NCBI GenBank assembly: GCA_000002435.2
Contig: AACB03000030.1
Strand: one strand, 5' to 3'
Length of the DNA: 9,593 nt
Source: Giardia intestinalis
Taxonomy: Eukaryota
Shown: in pieces, positions 638-7,979 of the stretch
Position numbering within the stretch: the first letter of the stretch is position 1
How the letters are laid out: each line of letters opens with the position of its first letter
Program-made: the position numbers and the translations under genes
Notes under the pieces: model-generated
The model's database searches: none
What the model saw: only the letters and a program-made list of their open reading frames with translations
Told to the model about the DNA's origin: nothing

Positions 638-2499
638 TCACGCCTTCCCCTGCACACGAACCACCAACACAAGAAGCCCACGAGGCCCCCCACGACAGCG
701 ATGACAGCCACGGAGATCCCTGCTATGGCACCAGTACTGAGGCCGCTCTTGTTGCCCCCGCTGGGCTTGGTGGACACGCACGCCTCACCCTCCAGCCTGT
801 AGTCGTCCCCGCACTGGCCGCACTTGTTCTCCTCGCTGCACCTGACGCACCCGTCGATATTGCAGGCGATGCACTTCGTTCCGTCTGTGTTCGGCCTCTG
901 GTCTTTACTGGTACAGGCCTCGCACTTATCGCCTGCTCCACAGTGCGAGCATCCGTCAACGGTACATGCGAAGCACCCGCTCCCAGCCAGGTTGGGCTTG
1001 TTGTTGTTGGTACACGCTGTACACACAGCAGCAGTCATACCAGTCTCAGATGGAGCTGCTGGGGCCGTACATGCCGAACAGCCATCTACCCCCACATATG
1101 CCTTAGAGGTATCACCAGTGCCTACTAGTGTGCCAAGGGAGTTGCTACATGCCAATACAGACTGATTCTGATTGGTTGCCCCAGGGACTATGAAGTACCT
1201 ATTGTTGGCATTAACAGCGGTACAGACACCGTTGGCTGCTGTCTTGCACATATGTTGTCCAGGTACTGTATCAACCTTGTAACAACCTCCCATATACAAG
1301 AAGTAGTTGTTAGTGCATTGTGTACATACACCTTGATCACATTGATTATTTGCTTTAGCACTATTACACTTCCCATCTATAGGATACGTATTAGCTTCTC
1401 CACAGTATGAGCAATAATGATGCTCTACACCCTTATCATCAATCACTATTGCATCGCAGGCACCAGAAGTTCCTCCACAGGCAGTATCATCTTCACAGAT
1501 CTTGGTGCATGTGACAGAGCCAGTACTGCCCTCCTTGCGATAGTTAGGCTTACAGTCAGTGCACTTGAAAGCACCGTTGTTAGAGCAGACACTGCAGCCT
1601 TCGCGACCCTTATCGTCTACGCTATCGCATGGGACGCACTTCTTCCCCTGTTGATCTGTAGTAGTTACTAAGAAGTATCCAGTCTTGCAGGTTTCACACT
1701 TATTTGGATCACCAGCAACAGAGCATGTGGCACAGTTATCACCACACTTGTCTGTACATGTACTAGTACCACTATCAAAGAAGTATCCATCGAGACAGGC
1801 TGAGCAGGTTGGATTGTCACTTCCTGTTTTCGTACATGTCTTGCAGTTGGCCTTTCCTTCGTTACCAAGAGTTGAATCTGTCACATCACTACAAAGAGCA
1901 CACGTTTTGTCCTCCTTCATAAATAAGGCCTCGTCAGCGCCCTCGCATCCTTCAAGCGTCTTCGCCACGCAGGTCGATGTCCCGTCGAGGGCCGTCCTGG
2001 GGGTCTTATTGGTCCCGCAGTTAGTGCACTTCGGCTTCCCCGTGGCCTTGTCGAAGGAGCATGCCGTGCACTCTGCGTGTATCGTACTACATGCCTTGCA
2101 TGTTCCCGACTCCGGGTCAGCATAAGTGTTTCCATCGCATCCAGTATCTTGTACACATTGATTACTCTTCAGGTACTTCCCCTCTGGGCACGATGTACAA
2201 TGATTCTGACCACTTCCATCGCAGGTCAGACAGGACTGATCACACTTCTCACATGTCTGAGCGTTCTTATAGTATCCATCTCTGCAGGTATCACACGTGG
2301 CCGCTCCTGGACTACCACTTGGTGCCGTACATGTGGCGCAGTTAGCCACCCCTGTATATCCATCTGCCCCATTGACATCATGACAGAGGATGCACTCGCT
2401 ACCCTTCTCTGGTGTTGCAGCCGGGTTCTTGAACAGGCCGTTATCTGCCTTACAAGCAGTGCACAGTCCTCCCTCAGCCTTTGTGCATATCTCACTCCA
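598..2499 (-). pseudogene. VSP-like cassette 1. Full-length Cys-rich ectodomain and TM, but no start codon or signal peptide. The CRGKA tail is destroyed by a 1-bp deletion.
   Basis: ORF 598..2349 in the track begins at a GTG. The frame is actually open up to Trp codon 2497-2499, preceded by TAG 2500-2502. Translation gives WSEICTKAEGGLCTACKADNGLFKNPAATPEKGSECILCHD.., many CXXC motifs, FLYMGGCY, CTKICEDDTACGGTSGACDA, then [34 protein letters not shown] followed by [15 protein letters not shown] instead of KA*. The expected stop is at 638-640. There is a cccc versus ccccc difference at about 647-651 relative to 2560-2564. No in-frame ATG with a hydrophobic leader. Confidence 0.75.
1082..2124. 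repeat. 1042-bp identity block shared with cassette 4 at 6571-7613. One mismatch at its 5' edge, otherwise identical.
   Basis: Track ORFs 1188..1376, 1417..1671 and 1668..1868 have identical translations to 6677..6865, 6906..7160 and 7157..7357, at a constant offset of 5489. The flanks at 2125 onward versus 7614 onward, and below 1082 versus below 6571, are clearly divergent. Confidence 0.85.
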
Positions 2500-2668
2500 C
2501 TATCATACTATCACCCTCTATCACACATTGTACAGCATTCACTACCCAAGTCACGCCTTCCCCCTGCACACGAACCACCAGCAGAGGAAGCCCACGAGGC
2601 CCCCCACGACAGCGATGACAGCGACGGAGATCCCTGCTATGGCACCAGTACTGAGGCCGCTCTTGTTG
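1913..2668. repeat. Direct repeat, copy B of 1-754
   Basis: See copy A. The offset is 1912-1914 bp, about one cassette period. Confidence 0.85.
2500..2550 (-). terminator. 51-bp spacer and 3'UTR with poly(A) signal AGTGAAT (plus attcact, 2537-2543)
   Basis: Identical architecture to 587-637. The spacer is 17 codons, so the next cassette's Trp codon is in frame with the upstream stop. It is separated from that stop by seven in-frame stop codons. Confidence 0.7.
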
Positions 2669-6180: not shown

Positions 6181-6231
6181 CTATCATACTATCACCCTCT
6201 ATCACACATTGTACAGCATTCACTACCCAAG
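6181..6231 (-). terminator. 51-bp spacer and 3'UTR with poly(A) signal AGTGAAT (plus attcact, 6218-6224)
   Basis: Same conserved junction sequence as the other spacers. Confidence 0.7.
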
Positions 6232-7979
6232 TCACGCCTTCCCTCTACATATGAACCACCAGCAGAGGAAGCCCACGAGGCCCCCCACGACAGCGATGAC
6301 AGCGACGGAGATCCCCGCGATGGCCCCCGTGGAGAGCCCGCTCCTGTTGGTACTCATAGACACACAGGAGGTCCCACTGCTGTCTAGACTGTACCCATCA
6401 ACACACTCCCCACACACATCATCCACCACACAGCTCTTGCAGTCACTCACAGAGCACAGCACACACCCACTACCATCCCTGTTGGGCTTCTTACTACTGT
6501 CACAAGAGGTACACACAGCGACAGTCATACCAGCCCAGTCAGAGCTGCTGGGGCTGTACACTGCGAACAGCCATCCACCCCCACATATGCCTTAGAGGTA
6601 TCACCAGTGCCTACTAGTGTGCCAAGGGAGTTGCTACATGCCAATACAGACTGATTCTGATTGGTTGCCCCAGGGACTATGAAGTACCTATTGTTGGCAT
6701 TAACAGCGGTACAGACACCGTTGGCTGCTGTCTTGCACATATGTTGTCCAGGTACTGTATCAACCTTGTAACAACCTCCCATATACAAGAAGTAGTTGTT
6801 AGTGCATTGTGTACATACACCTTGATCACATTGATTATTTGCTTTAGCACTATTACACTTCCCATCTATAGGATACGTATTAGCTTCTCCACAGTATGAG
6901 CAATAATGATGCTCTACACCCTTATCATCAATCACTATTGCATCGCAGGCACCAGAAGTTCCTCCACAGGCAGTATCATCTTCACAGATCTTGGTGCATG
7001 TGACAGAGCCAGTACTGCCCTCCTTGCGATAGTTAGGCTTACAGTCAGTGCACTTGAAAGCACCGTTGTTAGAGCAGACACTGCAGCCTTCGCGACCCTT
7101 ATCGTCTACGCTATCGCATGGGACGCACTTCTTCCCCTGTTGATCTGTAGTAGTTACTAAGAAGTATCCAGTCTTGCAGGTTTCACACTTATTTGGATCA
7201 CCAGCAACAGAGCATGTGGCACAGTTATCACCACACTTGTCTGTACATGTACTAGTACCACTATCAAAGAAGTATCCATCGAGACAGGCTGAGCAGGTTG
7301 GATTGTCACTTCCTGTTTTCGTACATGTCTTGCAGTTGGCCTTTCCTTCGTTACCAAGAGTTGAATCTGTCACATCACTACAAAGAGCACACGTTTTGTC
7401 CTCCTTCATAAATAAGGCCTCGTCAGCGCCCTCGCATCCTTCAAGCGTCTTCGCCACGCAGGTCGATGTCCCGTCGAGGGCCGTCCTGGGGGTCTTATTG
7501 GTCCCGCAGTTAGTGCACTTCGGCTTCCCCGTGGCCTTGTCGAAGGAGCATGCCGTGCACTCTGCGTGTATCGTACTACATGCCTTGCATGTTCCCGACT
7601 CCGGGTCAGCATACTTATCATTACCACAGCTATCAGTACATTGATTCCCATTGAGGTACTTCCCCTCTGGACACGATGTGCACTGGGTCGCCGATGTCTC
7701 ACAGGTGGCACAGTTCCCCTCGCATGGCTTACAAAGCTTGTTGTTTAGGAAGTACCCCTCTTGACAGGTATTACACGTGGCAGGTCCTGCATTCCCTGGT
7801 GCCGTACACTTGAGACAGTTGGCCACTCCCGTATATCCATTCGCTCCCTTGATATCAGAGCACAAGATGCACTCCCCACCAGGAGTCACCTTGTCTGCCC
7901 TGTTCTGGAATATGTACTTGTTATCTGTCTTACAAGCAGTGCACAGTCCATTACTGGCCTTTGTACATATCACACTCCA
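6232..7979 (-). pseudogene. VSP-like cassette 4. Start-less, one frameshift near the C-terminal third, intact TM and CRGKA.
   Basis: Track ORFs 6525..7973 (GTG 'start') and 6232..6561 overlap. There is a 1-bp deletion at about 6536-6546 relative to cassette 3 (gctctgactgggctgg versus gctctaacaacagttgg). The frame opens at Trp 7977-7979 after TAG 7980-7982 and begins WSVICTKASNGLCTACKTDNKYIFQNRADKVTPGGECILCSD. It ends ..[10 protein letters not shown]. Confidence 0.75.
6571..7613. repeat. Copy of identity block 1082-2124, embedded in the otherwise different cassette 4
   Basis: See 1082-2124. Confidence 0.85.

Follow-up and report, generated by a model that had tools for sequence, protein, structure and literature searches.

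The window analyzed here, a stretch of 9,593 nt from Giardia intestinalis (assembly GCA_000002435.2, contig AACB03000030.1), is a piece of a "linear array" of pseudogene cassettes for variant-specific surface proteins (pseudo-VSPs), and its cassettes are mosaics of one another. The array is direct and tandem, with six units arranged head to tail on the minus strand at a period of 1.8 to 1.9 kb; we number them U5 to U0 in the direction of minus-strand transcription. We attribute the mosaic pattern to homologous recombination among the paralogous cassettes, including a recent segmental transfer between the nonadjacent units U1 and U4, a reading to which we assign a probability of roughly 0.8.

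The transfer is visible in a block of identity (block A) between positions 1082 to 2124 in U1 and 6571 to 7613 in U4, which differ at a single site in 1,043 nt (1087/6576), so that 1088 to 2124 (minus strand) is an exact 1,037-nt repeat of 6577 to 7613 (minus strand). Inside the block none of the 223 synonymous and none of the 809 nonsynonymous sites differ, giving a synonymous divergence (dS) of 0, compared with a dS of 0.91 in the 122 codons just upstream and of about 1 to 2 in other cassette pairs, whose ratio of nonsynonymous to synonymous divergence (dN/dS) is 0.2 to 0.3. In the 150 nt beyond the block, identity falls, to 60% at the upper end and to 73% at the lower end. An earlier note, made from the letters of the sequence, had claimed that the block is effectively identical even at synonymous positions and that the cassettes diverge sharply just outside it, and had proposed comparing synonymous divergence inside and outside; the measurements bear out all of this. 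Both ends of the block lie within short motifs common to all cassettes, namely, TATGCTGACCC (TAYGCTGACCC, encoding YADP) at 7613 and AAGGCATATGTGGGGGT (encoding KAYVGV, of which AYVGV is encoded by ...GCATATGTGGGGGT) at 6577, as expected of exchange guided by homology. A patch bounded on both sides that is shared by nonadjacent units, the intervening ones being unaffected, would most simply be a conversion tract, and nonreciprocal conversion is presumably the mechanism: a tract of about 1.04 kb would have been copied very recently between U1 and U4.

Tests for recombination, for which we used our own implementations of a statistic like the pairwise homoplasy index (PHI) and of a Sawyer-like test of the GENECONV type instead of the published programs, gave the same picture. 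Sliding-window identity, computed for all pairs, swings abruptly along each unit over a range of about 45% to 100%, and the PHI-type statistic lies 45 standard deviations below the permutation mean (z = -45). The earlier note had proposed both of these checks; the tests on site order reject a single history. The longest run of concordant polymorphic sites between U1 and U4 covers 504 sites, whereas permutation gave at most 41, and for all six pairs among U1 to U4 the longest run exceeds that in each of 5,000 shuffles (P < 2e-4). Chance is thus excluded as the source of the large blocks. The 202 informative sites among U1 to U4 fall into three consecutive topology zones: (i) an N-terminal zone dominated by the grouping of U1 with U3 and U2 with U4, (ii) a middle zone joining U1 with U4 and U2 with U3, and (iii) a C-terminal zone joining U1 with U2 and U3 with U4. 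The earlier note had further held that sharp identity boundaries inside coding sequence mark conversion and do not arise between divergent duplicates, and this is supported by the two-sided tract, the contrast in dS, the topology shifts and the position of breakpoints in motifs; uniform divergence of duplicates could not have given rise to this combination.

Several further tracts tie the cassettes together. Positions 1 to 517 match 1913 to 2429 at 100%, and the match continues at 96 to 99% to about 754/2668 across the spacer, so that a second block (block B, 1913 to 2668, minus strand), composed of the U1 N terminus, the spacer and the transmembrane (TM) tail of U2, pairs with 1 to 754 at 100% over 517 nt, then at 99% and finally at 96%. 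Because this identity spans the spacer at an offset of one unit, it looks more like whole-unit duplication, which an unequal exchange within the conserved 3' end would have produced. Where the blocks overlap (1 to 212, 1913 to 2124 and 7402 to 7613), all three copies are identical. The C-terminal third of U3 (4418 to 4760, minus strand) is 91.0% identical to 6232 to 6572 of U4, with exact runs of 95 and 114 nt, and appears to be an older or partly decayed shared tract; older tracts would likewise link the C termini of U1 and U2. The earlier note had anticipated the match of the U1 N terminus to U0 and a match of roughly 90% between the C-terminal thirds of U3 and U4, and both are borne out. 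Its likening of the U4 N terminus to U2 holds insofar as U2 is the closest unit, but the identity is only 73.5%. A perfect 26-nt patch that it had pointed out does exist, a few bases from where it had been placed, at 4066 to 4091 and 7681 to 7706, but is not significant alone (P = 0.004 to 0.03 for its pair, before correction for 10 pairs) and was rejected as independent evidence after accounting for multiple testing. The left end of the window (1 to 517) begins within the perfect repeat of 1913 to 2429; should the window be a complete contig, its assembly broke off within the array, for which the many short linear-array contigs of the WB isolate (PMC2996952) offer a comparison.

The family to which the units belong had not been identified in the earlier note; by their sequence, they are minus-strand Giardia VSP cassettes. 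All sensible long reading frames lie on the minus strand, and their products are rich in cysteine (11.2 to 12.5% of residues) and dense in CXXC motifs (16 to 29 per open segment), with 34 of 40 cysteine columns conserved. Every cassette tested matched PF03302 (Giardia variant-specific surface protein), at 139.7, 143.9, 60.7 and 63.7 bits against a cutoff of 31.4. Searching some 5.8 billion proteins for homologues gave 233 matches; of the 120 listed, those that have a source name are nearly all Giardia VSPs, a few being labeled as high-cysteine membrane proteins or otherwise. The best among the matches listed, XP_001705784.1 of G. lamblia ATCC 50803 (WB), is 99% identical to U1, and other segments of the window are 99 to 100% identical to further WB proteins. 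By these identities the DNA belongs to assemblage A of G. intestinalis and stems from WB or an isolate that is almost the same.

The sharing of blocks extends to intact VSP genes, a comparison made at the protein level only, with the homologous proteins from the search denoted by P-numbers. Positions 8197 to 8923 of U5 match P0005 (XP_001705078) at 242 of 242 amino acids over three frames, 5704 to 6051 of U3 match P0008 at 116 of 116, 3027 to 3557 of U2 match P0004 at 174 of 177, and 3270 to 3644 of U2 match P0019, a high-cysteine membrane protein, at 125 of 125; a U2 block is also identical to P0009 over 143 of 143 residues, and U3 is identical to P0038 over 111 of 111 plus 367 of 369. P0005 is an intact VSP of 748 amino acids with a signal peptide and corresponds by length to vsp149 of PMC2996952, which is the first member of its array there and carries an initiator (Inr); P0008 and P0004 are intact VSPs as well. 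The N-terminal part of U5, however, is unrelated to P0005 (at most 54% identity), and in general the identity of segments to intact genes ends abruptly at conserved motifs, such as CEDETACGGTAGACDA. Protein identities of 98 to 100% with abrupt ends at motifs imply exchange between silent cassettes and expressible genes, and the VSP family as a whole appears to be a network of mosaics in which cassettes share recent blocks with expressible genes. Exact-pattern scans of Joint Genome Institute (JGI) metagenome contigs for matching Giardia DNA gave no match.

A separate observation concerns U3, which from its first in-frame Met (4418 to 6036) is 99% identical to the VSP "S7" (AAN52102.1, 539 amino acids), an entry whose frame continues uninterrupted where U3 is frameshifted at 5704. 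A literature search on the origin of GenBank "VSP S7" gave no result; the supplement of PMC2996952 places S6 among the linear-array members and has no entry named S7.

The blocks could alternatively have been made by unequal crossing-over or tandem segmental duplication, misaligned sister chromatids giving hybrid and duplicated units, instead of by conversion. A tandem array with nearly identical 3' ends and spacers would favor such misalignment, the U0/U1 identity (1 to 754 versus 1913 to 2668) is what a one-unit unequal exchange predicts, and several open reading frames (ORFs) of 425 to 427 amino acids have been reported in linear arrays (PMC2996952), so that U1-type units may be amplified. 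A single crossover, however, leaves one boundary and duplicates what lies between, whereas the U1/U4 block has two boundaries with diverged flanks on both sides (60 to 73% identity), and neither U2 nor U3 is duplicated; one crossover would have to be followed by a second, and the extra units would then have to be lost. We regard this as an unlikely origin for the blocks at large, albeit one to be taken seriously, and conversion and unequal exchange probably both operate in the array. Purifying selection on the encoded protein region, acting without recombination, has in its favor the conserved motifs of VSPs (GGCY, CXXC and CEDxTACGGT) and the low dN/dS among cassettes, but the same region is merely 45 to 75% identical between U1 and U2 or U3, and the lack of any synonymous difference in 223 sites is unexplained by selection at the protein level. 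On the synonymous-site result, we rejected it as the cause of the block and give it practically no weight.

The possibility that repeats were duplicated, mis-phased or homogenized during assembly or polishing, in which case the perfect blocks and their boundaries would not be genomic, draws on the state of the sequence itself. No unit is free of frame breaks, of which the window has about 12, and all eight inspected at the base level are 1-nt homopolymer changes, the signature of a long-read consensus; the WB reference was assembled from PacBio reads with Quiver-only polishing, leftover reads being assembled separately (PMC7000408), and the left end of the window falls inside a perfect repeat. 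On the other hand, the four different unique flanks at the two copies of block A need at least two genomic copies, and homogenization may lift an identity of about 98% to 100% but cannot make boundaries against sequence of 60 to 70% identity. Proteins from the independent Sanger assembly are equally mosaic: P0001 corresponds to the block, and common blocks followed by a switch at FLYMGGCY are seen in P0121, P0038 and P0008, with P0121 first sharing the N-terminal and middle parts of U3. Regions of 100% identity between array members have also been reported by others (PMC2996952). An artifact is thus very improbable as the source of the pattern, and repeat homogenization could have slightly inflated the exact figure of 100%. 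The attribution to recombination among paralogous cassettes has, for its part, several points weighing against it: (i) one haplotype cannot show the polarity or nonreciprocity of conversion; (ii) the exchange with intact genes is seen in protein comparisons only; (iii) some 12 one-base homopolymer indels indicate an error-prone consensus, and such pipelines can homogenize near-identical repeats; (iv) the phase of the flanks around the 1,037-nt repeat and its exact identity depend on the consensus alone; and (v) the match of S7 to U3 would bear on the presumed silence of the cassettes, since an mRNA origin of the S7 clone would mean that an array cassette is transcribed.

Turning to the anatomy of the array, each cassette encodes a cysteine-rich VSP ectodomain, a TM helix and a CRGKA tail, followed by the stop codon and AGTGAA. 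U5 (8041 to 9593, minus strand) is truncated by the window end and has VSP-like coding in three frames, with a TM domain, CRGKA and TGA at 8043 to 8041. U4 (6232 to 7979, minus strand; PF03302 E = 1.6e-16) opens at TGGAGTGTGATATGT (WSVICTKA...), without ATG or signal peptide, and its TM-CRGKA end lies at 6235 with the stop at 6234 to 6232 (minus strand). U3 (4418 to 6180, minus strand; PF03302 E = 8e-42) runs from WSEICTKAEGG... to ...CRGKA. U2 (2551 to 4366, minus strand) contains two 1-nt frame breaks and has its TM-CRGKA tail ending at 2554. U1 (638 to 2499, minus strand; PF03302 E = 1.6e-40) has an open frame of 633 codons from WSEICTKAEGG, and U0 (1 to 586, minus strand), cut off by the other window end, comprises an N-terminal part only. 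The C-terminal TM helix, CRGKA tail and stop are encoded by U2, U3, U4 and U5, the units ending in ...GFLCWWF(V/I)CRGKA, TGA and then ACTT(G/A)GGTAGTGAAT; in U1 the DNA of the tail is the same but frameshifted (G5 to G4 at 647 to 650). The sequence after the cassette stop is one that we take to be the VSP-type extended poly(A) signal, whose consensus is not stated in the papers cited here. Between stop codon and next cassette lie minus-strand spacers at 587 to 637, 2500 to 2550, 4367 to 4417, 6181 to 6231 and 7980 to 8040 (51, 51, 51, 51 and 61 nt), with AGTGAA right behind the stop codon, followed by ACAATGTGTGATAG and short repeats of the GTGATAG type.

The cassettes begin directly at TGGAGTGAGATATGC (WSEICTKAEGG...), straight after a stop codon, at a point that corresponds in the alignment to residue 103 of P0004, an intact VSP (N terminus MLLIALHLVTSILA...; signal peptide MLLIALHLV...); the next cassette starts 51 to 61 nt on at the equivalent of this residue. 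Alignment and inspection of the frames at the cassette starts found no ATG start with a signal peptide of 14 to 17 amino acids, the first in-frame Met lying 43 to 194 codons past the start of the cassette (for U2, the open segment reaches it after 61 codons), and the initiator PyAATGTT has zero matches on both strands of the window. With ATG, signal peptide and initiator all missing by virtue of the start at residue 103, a cassette would not be expressible alone, and the cassettes are presumably transcriptionally silent. Every testable feature of a pseudo-VSP linear array is present in the window, while those of intact VSPs (start codon, signal peptide and Inr) are absent: arrays are defined by at least two adjacent head-to-tail units (more than three in the G. 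muris definition), and the window has six; their spacers are very short, averaging 60 bp, and those here measure 51 to 61 nt. Each spacer also contains ACAATG(T/G)GTGATAG on the minus strand (605 to 618, 2518 to 2531, 4385 to 4398, 6199 to 6212 and 8008 to 8021), in which CAATGTG has one mismatch to the VSP initiator CAATGTT, and degenerate decamer repeats of the GTGATAG type lie behind it (7977 to 8017). This element may be a relic of the Inr and signal-peptide start.

The frame breaks lie at approximately 517, 647 to 650, 2985, 4330, 5703 to 5704, 6545, 8080, 8132 to 8135, 8196 to 8197, 8396, 8701 to 8702 and 8924 to 8926, and are densest in U5, at the window end. Those inspected at the base level are G5 to G4 at 647 to 650 (the CRGKA codons of U1), AAA to AA at 5703 to 5704, CC to C near 8080, G5 to G4 at 8132 to 8135, GGG to GG at 8196 to 8197, AA to A at 8396, TTT to TT at 8701 to 8702 and CC to CCC at 8924 to 8926; the breaks in U0, U2 and U4 fit homopolymer changes as well, with less certainty. 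The residues flanking the breaks are 99 to 100% identical to WB proteins of the Sanger era. Many indels with almost no substitutions are characteristic of a long-read consensus and not of decay, and the frameshifts are probably consensus errors instead of pseudogene decay. If so, the cassettes are intact in frame except for the missing 5' end. That apparent decay may be an artifact matters for counts of intact versus degenerate pseudo-VSPs in long-read Giardia assemblies.

Such an array could act as a sequence archive that swaps modules with expressible genes over evolutionary time. A stronger version holds that the array is an in-frame archive maintained by selection and actively donating modules of 0.3 to 1 kb to expressible VSP genes, the match of U5 to P0005 (vsp149) being an example; cassettes that are intact but for the 5' end, if the frameshifts are errors, would fit it, but we consider it rather doubtful. 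Were it true, and were transfers frequent enough for new mosaic antigens to form within infections or clonal lineages, it would add a layer of DNA recombination to antigenic variation in Giardia, which is currently viewed as purely epigenetic or based on RNA interference. Much of the surface-antigen repertoire of Giardia consists of pseudo-VSP arrays, and their exchange bears on how it is renewed; the window offers a clean, datable case, a single very recent tract about 1 kb long with its breakpoints mapped to conserved motifs.

The phenomenon is already known for this family and organism, and the window confirms it without extending it. Adam et al. (2010; PMC2996952) found over half of the vsp repertoire of WB to reside in linear arrays, whose spacers measure about 60 bp and whose downstream members have no Inr and may lack ATG, the PyAATGTT initiator being found on expressible vsp genes. 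They reported "long regions of 100% identity" between vsp61 and vsp64, detected recombination by GENECONV and Dualbrothers, and proposed that arrays are either "cassettes for recombination" or discarded genes; antigen switching in Giardia is reported there to leave the DNA unchanged. Xu et al. (2020; PMC7000408) again described arrayed pseudo-VSPs that lack start codons, recombination or segmental gene conversion was named for the pseudo-VSP arrays of G. muris (Xu et al., 2020; PMC7641422), a 2022 preprint called incomplete VSPs a sequence reservoir, and a population study of 2025 found VSPs enriched among gene-conversion tracts (PMC12669663). The window resembles the WB linear arrays (PMC2996952 and PMC7000408) in its head-to-tail order, spacers of about 60 bp, downstream units without Inr, start codon or signal peptide, conserved CRGKA 3' end, long regions of 100% identity, recombination statistics and hypothesized role as a cassette reservoir, and its best protein matches are members of such arrays (XP_001705784.1, which at 427 amino acids equals vsp111 by length, and XP_001705783.1). 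It shows no difference in kind; what it adds is a breakpoint map at the base level and the observation that frameshifts are probably consensus errors.

Tandem, promoterless partial cassettes that serve as donors for segmental conversion are familiar from Borrelia vls, Neisseria pilS and the Anaplasma msp2 pseudogenes. These bacterial systems have a single defined expression locus and unidirectional conversion, and share no homology with VSPs. The G. muris arrays (PMC7641422) are likewise tandem VSPs without signal peptides, untranscribed and exchanging sequence with intact VSPs, but end in GCRGK where CRGKA is found here and are adjacent to telomeres, whereas G. intestinalis arrays are reported to be nontelomeric. 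The variant surface glycoprotein (VSG) arrays of Trypanosoma brucei (PMC13233330) are alike in comprising large arrays of silent or incomplete genes, with mosaics made by segmental conversion and breakpoints in short homologies. In T. brucei, however, conversion into an expression site drives switching during infection, whereas Giardia has no known expression site, and neither de novo mosaics nor transfer into an expressed gene has been observed. The layout and segmental exchange seen in the window thus resemble those of the silent archives of T. brucei, Borrelia and Neisseria, membership in their functional class being unproven.

Other features of the window are minor. No Rfam families and no tRNAs were found in it. 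Long antisense ORFs of up to 330 amino acids lie on the plus strand opposite the cassettes (e.g., 3801 to 4793, 7777 to 8649 and 2077 to 2778); no Pfam family matches them, and they probably arise incidentally from a codon composition rich in cysteine and threonine. ORF calls of the bacterial type, with GTG or TTG starts, were dropped as irrelevant to a eukaryotic sequence. Finally, an extra CXXC-bearing module of about 34 amino acids precedes the TM helix in U1 (about 790 to 900), U2 (about 2700 to 2830) and U5 (about 8250 to 8390) and is absent from U3 and U4; it reads CTSKDQRPNTDGTKCIACNIDGCVRCSEENK in U1 and has other sequences in U2 and U5, and thus appears to be an insertion/deletion polymorphism among cassettes at the level of whole modules.

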